64,000 bases of DNA, taken from assembly GCA_963662285.2 (NCBI GenBank), contig CAXXMV010000008.1, positions 1,472,001 through 1,536,000 on the forward strand. The letters run 5' to 3'. Made by a program: the position numbers and the translations under genes. Shown piece by piece: positions 39,715 to 46,944 of the stretch (position 1 is its first letter; every line of letters begins with the position of its first letter). This DNA is from a bacterium. GTDB taxonomy: Bacteria; Hinthialibacterota; Hinthialibacteria; Hinthialibacterales; Hinthialibacteraceae. The notes under the pieces are model-generated. The model made no database searches. It was not told the origin of the DNA and saw only the letters and a program-made list of their open reading frames with translations.

Positions 39715-39837
39715 GTATAGTGGGCTAAAAGCCGAAAAGTAGGGTGGGCTAAAAGCGAAGCGTAGCCCACCAAAAACCACTTATGTATTTCCAACAAAAA
39801 GCAAAGCGCAGCCCACCACAACCACTGATGTATTTCC
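39715..39837 (+). repeat. Cluster of GTAG-type REPs (full copy 39739-39771 plus partial and tandem-duplicated copies)
   Basis: GTAGGGTGGGCTAAAAGCGAAGCGTAGCCCACC; 39751-39792 is imperfectly repeated at 39797-39837. Confidence 0.85.
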
Positions 39838-42575
39838 TAATAAATCGACCAATCAACCACGCTAGTCGGACGTTCAATGAAATAGATTCTTTCAACGCCA
39901 GCGCCATTCCAGGGGAAAGTAGTATGATTGGAAGCGAACCATTGCAATGCTCCATCATCATAATCAATCGCCAGGATGCAGAATCCGATCATATCTCCCA
40001 CAGTCGGAGGGAAGACTTCGTTTGCGAAAGCGCCTGTCATGGAATCCCAGGGGATGCGAACTTCAATGGCGTAATTACCGTCATCTTCCAATTTCCCGGC
40101 ATATTCAACCTGATCGAATAAATCCTGCGCCAGCCATCCTCCAAATGCATTCTTATATAGAACATTGGAGTCGCCATCATCAATCGCCAGAGTCGGAATG
40201 AACATTTCATTGGTGTCTAAACTATCCGGCGATTCAGCAAATACAAACTGTAAAGCATCAGCGCCATTAGGATCAGGGCCTACAAATGAATTAATATCAT
40301 CCACTGCGCTTAGCGCCGCATAGAAGTTTTCATCATCCCACATAAAATAATAGGTTCCATTGAAATCATCTAACGGAGTTACTTGTTGCGCACTATCATT
40401 ATTAATACCGCCATGAACCAAATCAACGAAATATGGATCATTAACGCCATTCAAAGTATCAGAATTAATTACTATAGACTGGGCGCCGGCATATTCTTCA
40501 GCGGATACCTGCCCATCAATGGTTATGCTCTGACCAGCATCTAGACGAACCGCATTAACCGGCCACCCCAGTTCTTGTTCTTTGGCGTAAATAGTCACGA
40601 AAATATCATCCAGATAAATCGGTTGTCCGGCTGCTACGTTAGAGAAGAGTTCCAGGGAAATATACTCGCGTTCATGAGGTTCATTGTTGAGTATCAAAGT
40701 TTGTTCAAACTGAACCCATTGATCATTCTGATCTATGGCAATGTGGCCGGAGAGGTTTTCCTGCCCATCGACTTTCTCGTTCAGGCGAACCCACAAATCG
40801 GTAAGTTCCGTCCCACTTGGGACAAAGTACATTCCCTTTACTGTGACGCGGGCATTCTTGGGAATGGCAGTATTATAACCATCCAGTTTCTGCCAAATGG
40901 CATGGTATCCGCCGACGCCATTAATGCGCAGAGCGTTGTCGCCCGAATAAACAACATCGGATTGCACAATAAAGTCAGTAATAACGCCTTCGGTGTTACG
41001 AATTATCCAAGGTTCCAATCCGCTCTCGAAACTGTTATTTAGAATATGTTCATCCAGAAAGCGGATCCAATCAATTTCGACCAAAGCATCTTCTGCAACG
41101 GAATTGGGGAAATCAAACCTAATCCGGTTTATTTCGCCTTTCCAATCTTGCTTATCGACATCAATAAAAGCTGTAAACCATTCATTGTTTACCGGAACTG
41201 AATACACGCTTGAACCATGCCCGCCTACTGTCGGGAACCAGAACATTTCCGGCCCGGCCATACCAGCGCCAGTATTGATTCTCATGCGGATTGCCGCGCC
41301 GCCATACCGTGGAGCGGGGAAAGGACCATTCGGACCAAACAGGTATGGATCATCTAAACCAGCAGGATAAGTCAATGTCAACAGGCCATCCGCAACATTG
41401 ATATTCTCCACCAGATTGCCTTCATTCCAACCCTGATCATCGCCATCGGTATTGAATTCCCAATTGGCGTCGGGGAAAGTCTCCAACACAACGATATCTT
41501 CCGGTTCTTGAACATCGATGAATATATCATCGACATAGAAAACCTTACCGGCAGGATTTTTGGAATAGAGTTGCGCTTTGAGCGAGGTCCGTTCAGCAGG
41601 CTCCATATCTAAAACCAGCGTGCTAGAGAATTGCGCCCACTGATCGAATGTTGTTATTTCAATTGGAGCACTAGTCAGTTCAGCACCGCCATTCGATTCA
41701 CGAACGCGGAACCAGAACGTCGAGTCGGCGTCCCAACTATCCGCCGGAATATTATAAGCCCCGAACACGCTGACCAGAGAACCTTTTGCAATATCTACGC
41801 CATTAAGGATTTCCTGTTCCAAGGCATGATAATTTGAATCAGCTGTACCCAGACCAGTTATTTGCAAAGACGCATACTCAGAGAATGAAATATCTCCAGT
41901 GATTCTAAAATCATCTTCCGTCCCGGCGCCGATCTGTTCCCAGGGGCTGAAACCATCAAAATAATATTCTTCAAAATTATTATTCTCCACCCCGTAATCA
42001 ACCAGGCGGATCCAGTCAATTTCCACTTTGTAATCCAGGATAACATTATCGGCCAGGTCAAAGCGGTAATTATTGATCATCCCCTGCCAAGGCTGCTGCT
42101 CATTTCCTTCCAGCAAATTGACATATACAACGAACCATCCATTATCTTCCGGCCACCAATCAGCAATATTAGAGCCGTATGGTTTATTCCCATGTCCGGG
42201 TAAACCTTCTACCGGATCTGCAGGAAAATAATAAATATTCGGACCCGATCCAAAATCTTCGGGATAGACATCAACTCCTTCATCGACGAATGACCAGCGC
42301 ATTCTCATCTGTACGCCGGTCGCCCGGTCGCCGTCATAAGGACCGAATGGGCCATTTACATAAGGATCGCCTGTCCCGGCCAGCACGGTTGCAACCAGCG
42401 AACCGTCAATAACTTCTAATGAATTTATCCCGTTTCCAATACTCCAACCTTCGCGATTGCCATCAGTGTTAAATTCCGCCGCCGTTGTATACAGCGGCAT
42501 ACATAGCACTGCCATGACTCCAAATGTTAATAAAACCTGAAATACATGTCTTGTTCTTAAAATGTTTCGATTCAT
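39837..42575 (-). CDS. Acidic secreted multi-domain carbohydrate-binding protein (duplicated CBM-like module plus C-terminal CBM9-like domain)
   Basis: Twice EFNTDG..GW...DPY..GP.GP...IDWIR; ITIDG...YFMWDDENFY...YAIEVRIPW (CBM9-like); ends PTSVVDWSIY. Confidence 0.75.
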   Translation of the reverse strand: MNRNILRTRHVFQVLLTFGVMAVLCMPLYTTAAEFNTDGNREGWSIGNGINSLEVIDGSLVATVLAGTGDPYVNGPFGPYDGDRATGVQMRMRWSFVDEGVDVYPEDFGSGPNIYYFPADPVEGLPGHGNKPYGSNIADWWPEDNGWFVVYVNLLEGNEQQPWQGMINNYRFDLADNVILDYKVEIDWIRLVDYGVENNNFEEYYFDGFSPWEQIGAGTEDDFRITGDISFSEYASLQITGLGTADSNYHALEQEILNGVDIAKGSLVSVFGAYNIPADSWDADSTFWFRVRESNGGAELTSAPIEITTFDQWAQFSSTLVLDMEPAERTSLKAQLYSKNPAGKVFYVDDIFIDVQEPEDIVVLETFPDANWEFNTDGDDQGWNEGNLVENINVADGLLTLTYPAGLDDPYLFGPNGPFPAPRYGGAAIRMRINTGAGMAGPEMFWFPTVGGHGSSVYSVPVNNEWFTAFIDVDKQDWKGEINRIRFDFPNSVAEDALVEIDWIRFLDEHILNNSFESGLEPWIIRNTEGVITDFIVQSDVVYSGDNALRINGVGGYHAIWQKLDGYNTAIPKNARVTVKGMYFVPSGTELTDLWVRLNEKVDGQENLSGHIAIDQNDQWVQFEQTLILNNEPHEREYISLELFSNVAAGQPIYLDDIFVTIYAKEQELGWPVNAVRLDAGQSITIDGQVSAEEYAGAQSIVINSDTLNGVNDPYFVDLVHGGINNDSAQQVTPLDDFNGTYYFMWDDENFYAALSAVDDINSFVGPDPNGADALQFVFAESPDSLDTNEMFIPTLAIDDGDSNVLYKNAFGGWLAQDLFDQVEYAGKLEDDGNYAIEVRIPWDSMTGAFANEVFPPTVGDMIGFCILAIDYDDGALQWFASNHTTFPWNGAGVERIYFIERPTSVVDWSIY

Positions 42576-42841
42576 TTCTTTTCTCCCTAATAAATTTTTC
42601 ATCAATGCATTTCAGCAATGCATTGATAATCACTATAAATCCATCATCAATACTAACATTTCATATTATTATGTTTCAAGACTGGTCACAAAAAAATCAC
42701 ACAAATACCGAAAATTTCCATAACAATGACTGATTATGGTTAATTTTGGCAAGAATAATATGATTAACGAGAATTTCTCTATCTTCACCGGTCTTTATCC
42801 CATGTAAATTGGTGGAAAATAGCCATTGAGCATTTTTTTTC

Positions 42842-42870
42842 TTGACAACTCAATTGATTTTTAATAAATT
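42842..42870 (+). promoter_or_regulatory. Sigma70-type promoter
   Basis: TTGACA (42842-42847), 17 bp, TAAATT (42865-42870). Confidence 0.7.
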
Positions 42871-42901
42871 AGATTTAGCGCTGAAAGGAGGTGGTCCATC
42901 T

Positions 42902-42964
42902 ATGCATTATGACTGTACGGGTAGTACATGTAGCGCAGGTGGCTGCGGAGGTGAGGAGAGCTAA
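42902..42964 (+). CDS. 20-aa small ORF MHYDCTGSTCSAGGCGGEES
   Basis: ATG preceded by GAAAGGAGGTGG and a promoter; below the ORF-track size cutoff. Confidence 0.5.
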   Translation: MHYDCTGSTCSAGGCGGEES

Positions 42965-43214
42965 CTTTCCCATTGCGCCTCTGTTATTAAACGGAACTTT
43001 CTTCGCATTAAAAGGAATTTAACTAAAGACGCTTCGCGTCATGATCCTGTGCGCTATTCCTCAACGCGATGATCTTTTCAAATAACAGGGATTATCGGTA
43101 ACGGATTTATTGTCAGTCGAGCGCCAAGGCGATAACGGATTGTATGATATTTAATTACAGACGTTATCCACCGGAACATGCTCTCCTGGCTTTCCAATCC
43201 AAGCAGTTTACCGC

Positions 43215-43250
43215 AACGGGGGCGATCAATTCAGATCGCCCCCGTTTTTA
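43215..43250 (+). terminator. Intrinsic terminator
   Basis: AACGGGGGCGATC-AATTCA-GATCGCCCCCGTT followed by TTT. Confidence 0.8.
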
Positions 43251-43262
43251 ATTTATTGCCAT

Positions 43263-43340
43263 GTAGGCTGGGTCGCGCTTTTCCGACACACCGATAATAA
43301 TTAATCGATTCGGTGGGTCATAAAAAGCGACCCACCCTAC
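43263..43340. repeat. Inverted pair of GTAG-type REPs (REPIN-like)
   Basis: GTAGGCTGGGTCG...CGACACACC facing GGTGGGTC...GACCCACCCTAC. Confidence 0.7.
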
Positions 43341-43350
43341 GGTACTTAGA

Positions 43351-46300
43351 TTATTTATCTTCTTCGAGAATCCCCATGCCGCTGCGATCCGGATATTTCG
43401 GGCGTCGTGCCGGAATATATGGATTGCTGTTAATCTCTTCAATCATCAGATCGATAGCTGCATCCAACTGAGGATCGCCGCCGTTAATCATCTTCGAGGG
43501 ATTATCAACTATTTCAATATCAGGATCAACGCCATGCCCTTCGATGCCCCAGGTGCCGTCAACGTCAAAGTAGGCGAAATTGGGAACAGAAACACGCCCT
43601 CCATCAACCAAAGGAGGCATTCCAGAGATGCCGACTAAGCCGCCCCAGGTGCGCATACCCACCAATTTACCCAATTCGGCCTGACGGAACAAAGCGGGGA
43701 ACATATCGCCGCCCGATCCAGCCAAACCATTAATCAACATGCATTTAGGACCATGATGGGCGCTGGTCGGCCAGGGGATGCTATCTCCATCACGCAACGC
43801 CCAATAGTTTGTGATAGGTCTTTTTAACAATTCGATAAAACGGCTTGGCGCCTGTCCGCCGCCATTCCACCGCTCGTCGATAATCAAAGCCTCTTTGGTC
43901 ATCTGTCCATAGAACTGCCGGAACAGATTATTCTGGCCATCGACGCCGGTATTAGGCACGTAAATATAACCGACTTTGCCGCCTGATTTCTTATCTACAT
44001 AAGCGCGGTTCTTTTCGATCCACGCCCGGTAGCGCAGATTGCCATCATTAGAAAGCAATTTGATGACTACATCACGCGAATCATCATTCTTCACAGGTTC
44101 ATCACCAACGGTCAACACAACAGTCTTGTCAGCCAATCCGATAAAGGCCGCCCAGGGATCAAGATTGGCATCAATCGGAACGCCATTGACAGCCAGAATA
44201 TAATCGCCTTCATCGACCTTATCTTTGGCAACATGGTTGAAAGGACTGCGCGCATCGACATCCCATACCGCGCCTTCATAAATCTTCGAGATACAATATG
44301 CGCCTTCTTTCAACTCCAGATCAACGCCTAACATGCCAACCGATTCGCTGGGCTGACCTTCAACATCACCGCCGCCATAGTAGGCATGTCCGACATTCAA
44401 TTCAGAGATCATCTCTTTAATGACAAAACTGAGGTCTTCTCTGGTGGCGCAATCATCCAGCATGCCTTCGTAATGCTTCCGGACCGCTTCCCAATCCACG
44501 CCGTGCATGTTCGGGTCATAGAAGAAATCGCGGTACCTGCGCCAAGCGTCGGTAAATATTTCACGCCATTCTTCCCGTGGATTAATCATAGTACGCAGTC
44601 CAGCTGCACTGATGGCGTCTTCCAGTTTCTGATCAGGCTCAGCCTTGATAACATGAAAACTGGAACCTTTTCTGACCAGCATCTTCTTGCCGTCAGCGGT
44701 CATGTCATAACCACCCATATCATCCAAAACCGTTTTTTCTTCCTTCTTCTCATCAGAAAGATCAAACAGTTTAATAGAAGTCTTGCCGCCGCTGTTGCGC
44801 AATCCGCTGCGGCAATAAATCAATTTATCTTCATGGTTAACTGATAAAGCGTAGAAATTCCCATGCTTGACCGACAATTGAAACGCCCTGCGCTCAAAGC
44901 CTTCTATATCGATCTCCAGAGGCTTTTCGTCTTCTTTTTTCTTATTATCTTTTTTGTCTTTAACAGCCTCTTTATCAGCATCCTTGTCGCCGTCTTTATC
45001 CTTCTGGTCTTTGGCGTCTTTATCATCTACATCATCATCTTTTTTCTTTTTATCTTTGGCTTTTTTATCACCATCATCTTTACTACCATCTTTGTCATCA
45101 TCAGAGTCGTCATCTGAATCCTTGTCTTTATCTTCTTCGTCCTTACCCTCTTTATCCTTATCCTTCTCATCTTCCCATGATTCTTCATCACTCTCAAACA
45201 GATAAGGGTCTTTTACATCTGCGCGGAGAGGAACCGCATAGAGCAAATCGGTATCGCTATATACGAACGATTTACCCAATCCCCAACCGGCGTCTTCATA
45301 AATCGGACTATCAAAATTGCGGTTGCTGGCGAAAAACAGAAAGTCGCCCTTACGGTCAAAAGTGGGCGCCGTATCGTTGAACATATCGCTGGTAACCTGA
45401 TAAGACTCTTCCTTCTTCAGGTTATACAGAAAAATTGAGTTGAGCTGGTTCCGGGCGCCTTTTACATAAGCAATCCAAGCGGAATCATGCGACCAGTTAA
45501 TACCGGGATTGCTTCCCCAGCGGTCTTTATCAACAAAAAGGGATTCTTTATTATCAATATTATGTATATAGATCGATCCACTGTTATCGGTGAAAGCAAT
45601 ATTCTTCGAGTCAGGCGACCAAGTTGGATTGTAGCGGTATTTCTTACCGCCCGATGTCAGCTGCTGAGTCTCTTCCTTGCCATCGGATTGCATGATGTAA
45701 AGTTCATACTCTCCTGATTCATCAGAAAAATAGGCGATCCAGCGGCCATCAGGGCTCCAACTGGGGTAGCGTTCCGCCGCTCCGCTGCTGCGCGTCAGGT
45801 TGCGCACAGCGCCTTTTTTCTCCGGCAGCGTCCAGATGTCGCCGCGCGCTGCAATCACAACGCGCTTACCGGTTGATGATACGCCCCAACCACGAAGATG
45901 CCCGCTTACATCGGTTCGCTTGGAACGGATTTCAGGACGGGCGCCGGGAATCATAACAATGATGGATTTTGATTGTCCGGTGGATAGATTCAACAAATAT
46001 AGGTTTGATCCATTCTGAAAAACAATCTCCCCTTCACCATTGGCGCCGGGGCCAATCGATGGAAACTTACAGTCAAAATCTTTGAAAGTAGTAACCTGCT
46101 CGCGTTTTTCGGTGGTTGTATTATAAGACCAGATATTCAAACGATGATTCGGCCCGGCATCGCTAAGATAATAAACCACGTTGCCATACCACATGGGATA
46201 AGTGTCTGTTCCTTCAAAATCAGTTATCTTCTTGGATTTATAATCTTTGAGGTTGAACAGCCAGATATCAGTCGCCATGCCTCCACGATACCTTTTCCAG

Positions 46301-46944
46301 GTGCGGAAGTCTCTGCTATGCGGCGTATAAGCCAGCCACTCGCCATCGCCGTTGATAGCGCCATTGGCGCCGTAAGGCACGGGTAACTTATGCGGCATGC
46401 CGCATTCGGGCGACACAGTAAACAATTGGCTCTGACGCCCCAATCCAGCTAATCCACTGGCGTAAAAAAGCAGTTCGTTCTGAGGAGTCCAATCACAAAG
46501 CATTTCATTGGCGGGGTGATGAGTCACCCGAAAGGGAATTCCTCCCTCTACGGCAATAATATAGATATCTCTATCGCCATCATAATTCCCAACAAAAGCA
46601 ATTGATTTCCCATCTGGACTAAACCGGGGAAACATCTCCTCTCCGGCGGGGCTGGCTAAAGGAGTCGCCATACCGCCCTGGCGGGAAACCAACCATAAAT
46701 CATTAGCGTAAACAAATACAATGCTCGATGCGCTGACATCAGCGTAACGCAGCATCCCCGCATGGGGGCGCACCGCCGCTTCCACCGGTTCAGCATCGCC
46801 AGTTTTACTAGCCAACGCTATCATCTGTGTCCGTGCGTCATCGCTTTGCTGATCCAATGGCGCCAATGATATAAGTTCGCCTGTATTTCCTGTTGATACA
46901 ACAAGACATAACAACCCAACTACTAAATAAAAGTATTTCATCAC
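43351..46944 (-). CDS. Tricorn-type S41 protease
   Basis: PD40 repeats (PRFSPDG, PSWSPDG), WKRYRGG, ELNVGHAY, PDZ region, IIDERWNGGG, AGSGGD, RTWGG, EGHGVDPD, DPQLDAAI. Confidence 0.95.
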   Translation of the reverse strand: MMKYFYLVVGLLCLVVSTGNTGELISLAPLDQQSDDARTQMIALASKTGDAEPVEAAVRPHAGMLRYADVSASSIVFVYANDLWLVSRQGGMATPLASPAGEEMFPRFSPDGKSIAFVGNYDGDRDIYIIAVEGGIPFRVTHHPANEMLCDWTPQNELLFYASGLAGLGRQSQLFTVSPECGMPHKLPVPYGANGAINGDGEWLAYTPHSRDFRTWKRYRGGMATDIWLFNLKDYKSKKITDFEGTDTYPMWYGNVVYYLSDAGPNHRLNIWSYNTTTEKREQVTTFKDFDCKFPSIGPGANGEGEIVFQNGSNLYLLNLSTGQSKSIIVMIPGARPEIRSKRTDVSGHLRGWGVSSTGKRVVIAARGDIWTLPEKKGAVRNLTRSSGAAERYPSWSPDGRWIAYFSDESGEYELYIMQSDGKEETQQLTSGGKKYRYNPTWSPDSKNIAFTDNSGSIYIHNIDNKESLFVDKDRWGSNPGINWSHDSAWIAYVKGARNQLNSIFLYNLKKEESYQVTSDMFNDTAPTFDRKGDFLFFASNRNFDSPIYEDAGWGLGKSFVYSDTDLLYAVPLRADVKDPYLFESDEESWEDEKDKDKEGKDEEDKDKDSDDDSDDDKDGSKDDGDKKAKDKKKKDDDVDDKDAKDQKDKDGDKDADKEAVKDKKDNKKKEDEKPLEIDIEGFERRAFQLSVKHGNFYALSVNHEDKLIYCRSGLRNSGGKTSIKLFDLSDEKKEEKTVLDDMGGYDMTADGKKMLVRKGSSFHVIKAEPDQKLEDAISAAGLRTMINPREEWREIFTDAWRRYRDFFYDPNMHGVDWEAVRKHYEGMLDDCATREDLSFVIKEMISELNVGHAYYGGGDVEGQPSESVGMLGVDLELKEGAYCISKIYEGAVWDVDARSPFNHVAKDKVDEGDYILAVNGVPIDANLDPWAAFIGLADKTVVLTVGDEPVKNDDSRDVVIKLLSNDGNLRYRAWIEKNRAYVDKKSGGKVGYIYVPNTGVDGQNNLFRQFYGQMTKEALIIDERWNGGGQAPSRFIELLKRPITNYWALRDGDSIPWPTSAHHGPKCMLINGLAGSGGDMFPALFRQAELGKLVGMRTWGGLVGISGMPPLVDGGRVSVPNFAYFDVDGTWGIEGHGVDPDIEIVDNPSKMINGGDPQLDAAIDLMIEEINSNPYIPARRPKYPDRSGMGILEEDK

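Follow-up and report, generated by a model that had tools for sequence, protein, structure and literature searches.

Among the systems described so far, those closest in their working to the element presented here are presumably the dual-function RNAs, such as Staphylococcus RNAIII/hld, SgrS/SgrT and SR1/SR1P. Messenger RNAs (mRNAs) of hok-type type I toxins are characterized by a fold-back between their 5' and 3' ends. The element in question occupies positions 42842-43250 on the plus strand of a 64-kilobase (kb) window of bacterial DNA (the whole stretch analysed, 64,000 nucleotides (nt) long, positions 1,472,001 to 1,536,000 of contig CAXXMV010000008.1, assembly GCA_963662285.2, phylum Hinthialibacterota), and it is a genuine gene for a small RNA that stands alone and is strongly conserved in one little-known bacterial phylum. 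Two further systems concern the 3' end of 16S ribosomal RNA (rRNA). STAB-SD, the 5' mRNA stabiliser of Bacillus thuringiensis cry3A, has no role in initiation and blocks RNase J1 (PMC4113751). In Bacteroidia, the lone strong Shine-Dalgarno (SD) sequence of rpsU is reported to sense ribosomes with a free anti-SD (PMC13000453, PMC7797042).

Like the dual-function RNAs, the element is a unit with its own promoter and terminator, in which a tiny open reading frame (ORF), here with translation predicted from its sequence, is embedded in a highly structured RNA whose 3' region is able to fold back on the coding or initiation region. Unlike them, and with no relation to them in sequence or in Rfam, it uses the ORF to supply one strand of conserved helices, keeps frame and stop position while its peptide is not conserved, and carries a leader complementary to the 16S tail over 14-16 nt. 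With STAB-SD it has in common an SD-like sequence, placed close to the start of the RNA, that matches the 3' end of 16S rRNA (PMC4113751), but here an ATG follows the leader at 5-6 nt in the members and opens a conserved frame. The genome also differs in carrying two RNase E/G genes and, at 92.5% completeness, no RNase J above cut-off; with this set of enzymes, a paired 5' end together with a bound ribosome would shield the transcript from 5'-end-dependent RNase E, which is not the way in which STAB-SD works. Long-range pairing between coding part and 3' end, and possible conformers that open or close the initiation region, resemble the hok-type mRNAs, from which the element is set apart by a hydrophilic, non-conserved peptide, by its single-copy and phylum-wide occurrence, and by the lack of any antisense RNA seen at the locus. 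As in rpsU, one gene per genome has an exceptional SD sequence that may report the state of the 16S 3' tail. The product here is a variable peptide of 17-30 amino acids (aa) instead of bS21, and long exact complements of the 16S tail are also found elsewhere in this genome (110 ten-nt window matches, some of which come from the 16S gene itself).

Direct reading of positions 42842-43250 bears out all coordinates of an earlier note on this DNA, made from the sequence alone, which had proposed a stand-alone transcription unit with a promoter and a terminator of its own. The promoter is of the sigma-70 type (42842-42870), with -35 TTGACA at 42842-42847, a 17-nt spacer and -10 TAAATT at 42865-42870; it scores 10/12 in a consensus scan and has a T-rich stretch upstream. 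The intrinsic terminator (43215-43250) is composed of a stem of 13 base pairs (bp) at 43215-43246, nine of them G-C, a 6-nt loop and a T run. Judging from the position of the -10, the transcript is predicted to start at about 42877, next to the word GCGC at 42878-42881, which gives a length of 374 nt (~ 375) here and roughly 210-490 nt in relatives. In all members the predicted start probably lies right at a GCGC-type word, and each of the 32 genome loci has a TTGACA-like -35 at the same spacing from this 5' word (TTGACA in 27, TTGATT in 3, TTGAAA and TTGACT in one each, counted by eye). The folding energy of the 374-nt transcript is -125.4 kcal/mol, compared with -103.05 +/- 5.67 in shuffled sequences (z = -3.94, none of 100 as good), and the shortest relative also folds better than its shuffles (z = -4.51, 0/200).

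The unit is single-copy in its genome. BLAST comparison in 41 genomes disclosed two conserved parts, the leader with the ORF (query 35-130) and the last 70 nt (query 339-407), while the middle is not conserved. A covariance model built from the 5' half of the unit only (R1) matches 32 of the 35 genomes of the phylum, including all 18 of high quality, with one strong match in each; searches by class and by phylum returned the same 35 genomes. The 3' element is present in 26 of 26 loci and, in addition to these, in g24. A strict terminator was found in 22 of the 26, and here 74-353 nt separate stop codon and terminator, a span made up of the variable insert and the conserved 3' element of roughly 35 nt. 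Two weak R1 matches in genome G029 were considered as second copies and rejected. One of them (L090) is a gene-like stretch which reads like part of a gene and shows no promoter-like or terminator-like sequence. The other (L091, contig C3, minus strand, ~ 440-560) is a different ORF of 44 codons, for an acidic peptide containing Cys and Pro, with a strong SD ahead and a terminator-like hairpin after it, and is not a member of the family.

A loose pattern scan throughout one genome for each of 185,579 species gave 31 stretches. The full architecture was observed in 21, without exception in records titled 'bacterium' or 'Candidatus Omnitrophota bacterium'. The remaining ten, from other phyla, have neither the extended leader nor a real 3' element: seven are without any match to the 3' motif, and the loose motif matches in three are unrelated sequence. 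A stricter pattern yielded 15 metagenome contigs.

Searches for a known family returned none. Rfam 15 gave no match at gathering score in the 64-kb window and none in the loci of 18 relatives, its permissive application to 42600-43400 (E <= 10) returned junk only, and ARAGORN detected no transfer RNA or transfer-messenger RNA (tmRNA) in 42000-44000. The 6S RNA, tmRNA, signal recognition particle (SRP) RNA and RNase P RNA of the genome were each located elsewhere above cut-off, so the locus is not a divergent copy of one of these four housekeeping RNAs, and that candidate was ruled out. In the literature, with supplements lying outside the search, no description of the element was found. The best reading is that it belongs to no described family and represents a new translated, structured small RNA.

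Parts of the stretch occur in 16 RNA-library runs from several studies. Contigs from four metatranscriptome runs in three studies cover 42887-43221 (a whole 334-nt contig), 42934-43181, 42929-43121 and 42889-43026. They all lie inside the predicted transcript and none extends beyond it, parts left uncovered not being evidence of absence, and the ORF and the 3' part are spanned together. The expectations of the earlier note are borne out in several respects: tmRNA, RNase P and SRP signatures are lacking at the locus, no Rfam family is matched, the unit is kept in relatives with a long-range folding that covaries, and the library contigs hint at the predicted transcript. In this way the element came through all three refuting tests which that note had set.

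For the long-range folding, RNAalifold and pair counts support four nested helices. P1 is formed by the 5' end (GCGC, 42878-42881) with a GCGY word in the ORF (here GCGC, 42933-42936). P2-P4 are formed by an invariant ORF block (42937-42961) with a conserved CU-rich 3' element (43180-43213). In P2, positions 42938-42945 are paired with 43204-43212; in P3, 42947-42950 with 43192-43195; and in P4, 42954-42961 with 43180-43187. The A/C-rich bulge of the 3' element (43196-43203) is unpaired, and the 5' strand of P3 is a second SD-like word, GGAGGTGA. RNAalifold was run on 18 short members and pairs were counted on a MAFFT alignment of 19 short members; P2-P4 rest on this 19-member alignment and not on all 40 distinct versions. 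The cells of P1-P4 are paired in 90.6%, compared with 36-57% when the partners are slid. Eight pairs change on both sides, and the covariation score was reached by none of 500 shuffles. The clearest covariation is that of P1, only 4 bp long, in which one pair is AU in 9 and GC in 9 of the 19 sequences, another CG in 17 and AU in 2, and a third GC in 18 and CG in 1. Among the 40 distinct versions, 20 have GC as the first pair of P1, 16 have AU and 4 a mismatch (counted by eye). Double changes occur at five pairs of P4, and the terminator stem covaries strongly.

All five complementary pairs listed in the earlier note occur where it had placed them, but their significance differs. Only the long-range pair AGGAGAGC/GCTCTCCT, which is P4, is conserved in relatives, while the three inner helices fall within a non-conserved insert (42966-43179). 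A crossing pair, CGGTAA 43096-43101 / TTACCG 43208-43213, uses a word in the same insert and was not seen in other genera; TTACCG belongs to the conserved 3' strand of P2, with which the crossing pair could compete in this genus alone. The variable structured insert as a whole (42965-43179) extends for ~ 215 nt after the ORF without a long reading frame, and relatives have nothing similar to it at the DNA level. A local hairpin (42914-42928) is predicted, from thermodynamics only, within the variable central part of the ORF, and hairpins of other lengths stand at the equivalent place in relatives, as read from their sequences.

The mini-ORF (42902-42964) has 20 codons followed by TAA, and begins at the inner ATG of a 40-aa ORF starting with TTG in the ORF list. 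Its ATG is 5 nt past the invariant GGTC of the leader and 3 nt past the end of the 16-nt complement. The distance from ATG to the block takes 12 distinct values between 23 and 65 nt in the 32 loci, all of them equal to 2 modulo 3, and stops in the other two frames occur in 26/32 (+1) and 31/32 (+2). The frame is open in every one of these loci, with 17-30 codons, and is kept in 14 of the 15 metagenome contigs. The stretch between ATG and block is variable, the block starts with AGGTGRCTG, and the stop codon ends 28 nt after the block start in 31/32, with all three stop codons in use. The third position does not vary in the GCA, GGT and GGC codons of 27/27 sequences, and in the GGA and GGT that follow it is at least 90% conserved. 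The limit of conservation coincides with the end of the GGAGGTG word and not with a codon boundary. In family f5, nucleotides of the block are kept while amino acids change: the tail reads GGWE.. instead of GGCGGE.. because the GGAGGTGA word sits one base earlier relative to the frame. Differences among g24 species, compared by reading, are for the most part non-synonymous: 2 synonymous and 3 non-synonymous codon changes in one pair, 0 and 4 in another. Based on these sequence comparisons, the RNA and the act of translation seem to matter more than the peptide.

The reading that we favour, although it is held tentatively and at a little less than an even chance, is a translation-gated dual-function small RNA, lineage-specific, single-copy and strongly transcribed, in which the RNA is the main effector. 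The phrase 'ribosome-binding or dual-function RNA', offered in the earlier note, remains the best class of reading. In the proposed mechanism, the long leader would capture 30S subunits, and every ribosome reading the frame would have to unzip P1-P4, since the last 32 nt of the frame contribute the 3' strand of P1 as well as the 5' strands of P2-P4. Translation would in this way toggle the RNA between two states, closed when the 3' element is paired and open when it is free, and the closed state would be restored once the ribosome terminates at the fixed stop. Candidate partners of a freed 3' element would be the SD regions of other mRNAs or its own leader.

Several observations weigh against this reading. 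Support from covariation is limited to P1 and P4; in P2 and P3 there is almost no variation from which a proof could be drawn. The thermodynamic ensemble prefers pairing of the block with the 3' half of the leader and the start region (p ~ 0.4-0.6), and predicts neither P1 nor P2 above 0.25. An alternative helix of the leader with the ORF block is pairable in 91%, and one of the SD core with CUCC in the 3' element in 98.9%, both with no double changes and both incompatible with P1 in a nested fold. Sequences with two mutually exclusive partners are expected to be frozen, which would explain the invariance. The unpaired bulge of the 3' element varies between genera, unlike a fixed seed. Translation of the ORF is inferred from conservation of its frame and was not observed directly. 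In metagenome contig L100, near-identical to L010 and L102, the frame closes after two codons owing to a 1-nt insertion immediately behind the ATG, which may be an assembly error or a natural variant in which translation is knocked out. The library contigs point to expression as a hint, since ends, strand and level are not readable from them and carry-over of DNA is possible. R1 matches are absent in G015, G026 and G034 (86, 90 and 68% complete). Finally, the strongly conserved tail in families f1-f3 leaves room for a function of the peptide there.

This last feature leads to the foremost rival, an ordinary and very highly expressed micropeptide mRNA, which we regard as unlikely but deserving serious consideration. 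Its product would be the Cys/Ser/Gly-rich peptide of 17-30 aa, such as one that binds thiols or metals, or an unlinked precursor, and structure would serve stability and translational control only. Conservation of frame and start in 32/32 and of the stop position in 31/32 is as expected for such a gene, as are the strong promoter, the perfect SD and the strong terminator. In f1-f3 the tail follows the motif S-A/V-G-G/D-C-G-G and three small or acidic residues; acidic residues are repeatedly found at position 3-4, as is a Cys early in the peptide. All peptides are hydrophilic, mostly acidic and rich in Cys, Ser, Gly, Asp and Glu, without a hydrophobic or membrane-spanning stretch, according to their composition. 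The peptide is not conserved across the phylum, however. Tails are ..GGWEV.. or ..GGWEG.. in f5 and ..GGCREAEAR in f6, the variants listed being GGCGGEES, GGWEVSSG, GGWEGSPG and GGCREAEAR, and one peptide in g24 is without any Cys. The invariant synonymous sites, and a boundary of conservation set by an SD-like word and not by a codon, are further arguments against a peptide as the product. For six peptides tried, no family was found in Pfam or NCBIfam, larger protein collections being outside this search; no linked gene for a modifying enzyme was seen at the loci, and synteny exists within the genus only.

The leader (42883-42898) is the basis of two other explanations. The genome's own 16S gene carries the expected 3' tail, and 16 nt of this tail pair with the leader, one of the pairs being G-U, in agreement with the extended pairing that had been proposed from the usual 16S end. 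A 16-nt complement, with wobble allowed, is found at only two loci in the 7,286,025-base genome, namely on the antisense strand of the 16S gene and at this site, and its presence here, like the strong folding, goes beyond chance. The first 14 nt of the leader are invariant in relatives, the complement being 14 nt rather than 16 nt long in f5 and f6, and the word GAAAGGAGGTGGTC is near-invariant among members, with a single G for A in one genome. According to the first explanation, the element would be a fifth 'housekeeping' small RNA of the phylum, which works on the ribosome: it would seize 14-16 nt of the 16S 3' tail, and the obligatory transit of the ribosome along its helices would report or set how many initiation-competent 30S subunits are free. 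We consider this possibility doubtful.

A purely 30S-directed RNA, which would titrate, park or protect free small subunits as a sponge or a 3'-end cap, with the ORF as a by-product or release device, is improbable in our view. Invariance of the leader beyond a normal SD fits a partner that never varies, and the leader is unique in the genome. The phylum-wide, single-copy occurrence of the element and its seeming abundance in RNA libraries point the same way. In addition, full pairing over 16 nt leaves only 3 nt before the ATG, which is tight by the geometry of the initiation complex. Against this, a pure sponge has no need of a conserved frame and stop position, the aligned ATG spacing is in the usual range, and the complement does not reach 16 nt in f5 and f6. 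HPF is encoded in all 35 genomes, leaving no gap to fill, so the RNA does not replace it, and replacement of HPF was dropped as a candidate.

Two other sequences of G000, both outside the window, are recorded here as observations of their own. A tract of > 2 kb of almost pure G (contig C1, ~ 83.8-86.2 kb), which surfaced in the anti-16S scan, looks like an artefact of assembly or sequencing. An identical 33-nt word, comprising a strong SD with its own complement close behind, occurs ~ 20 times (contigs C1-C4, C6 and C8), and probably forms the 5' end of a mobile-element gene present in multiple copies, in which the ribosome-binding site is self-sequestered.

In the next alternative the CU-rich element and the terminator would constitute a 3'-derived small RNA, which may rely on Hfq and would act by pairing with other mRNAs at their ribosome-binding sites, and the mini-mRNA would be a precursor masking the seed. 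A single conserved block directly upstream of a U-tailed terminator is the usual shape of such RNAs, Hfq is present in 33 of the 35 genomes, and words of the CUCC type are complementary to SD sequences, as the high pairability of the leader core illustrates. Against it, the invariant letters of the element are confined to positions paired with the ORF block and the unpaired part varies between genera. Furthermore, the RNA contigs join the ORF and the 3' part, and the pairing of SD core and CUCC shows no double changes. This alternative is regarded as having a slim chance.

A CsrA-titrating RNA, acting through GGA motifs in leader and ORF block, is very unlikely: CsrA is found in 35/35 genomes and three GGA words lie in purine-rich stretches, but there are only these three, two of them within P3 and P4 and not in hairpin loops, and the protein antagonist FliW, which adjoins csrA at least in this genome, is present in 34/35. 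A type I toxin mRNA that long-range folding keeps inactive, to which the earlier note had likened the element, is largely refuted as a family relationship and hardly credible here, given that peptides are hydrophilic, mostly acidic and not conserved between families, that the element is single-copy in 32 of 35 genomes and looks vertically inherited instead of patchy or multi-copy, and that no conserved antisense promoter was found, the only promoter-like minus-strand site in the unit (43120-43091, 9/12) being located in the non-conserved insert. A leader peptide or attenuator controlling a downstream gene, suggested by a short ORF followed by a terminator, is likewise largely refuted and scarcely tenable, as the next gene is convergent (it ends at 43351 on the minus strand), neighbours differ between genera and no antiterminator alternative was found.

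Concerning the surroundings of the favoured dual-function RNA, gene neighbours are common only within the genus and none is conserved beyond it. A recurring neighbour family of ~ 220 aa (8 loci, at varying distance and in varying orientation) was taken as a paralogous family and not as synteny. Upstream, an ORF of 922 aa (39837-42605, minus strand), divergent from the promoter region of the element, begins with what resembles a signal peptide and has two halves that are similar to each other; its place beside the element is not kept in other genera. Downstream, the convergent ORF of 1197 aa (43351-46944, minus strand) contains a long Asp/Lys/Glu-rich insert of low complexity in the middle of the protein. 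Between its stop and the terminator of the element lies a near-perfect hairpin of 72 nt (43266-43337), which gave a spurious microRNA match in the permissive Rfam scan and is probably the terminator of this ORF.

The element combines three unusual features: the longest possible complement of the 16S tail, an open frame with a drifting peptide, and coding nucleotides used as a helix strand. This combination points to translation as a mechanical switch acting on the RNA, a principle that has been discussed for dual-function RNAs but is rarely so clean in comparative data. The family could become a new Rfam entry, and its shortest relatives (~ 210 nt) provide a compact, transplantable object for testing extended SD-anti-SD pairing and ribosome-driven remodelling of RNA. 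It is very rare for a small RNA to be both universal and single-copy in an entire phylum, and the RNAs for which this holds, namely tmRNA, 6S RNA, SRP RNA and RNase P RNA, belong to the core machinery. If the housekeeping explanation were true, the element would be a ribosome-directed counterpart of the role that 6S RNA has for RNA polymerase.

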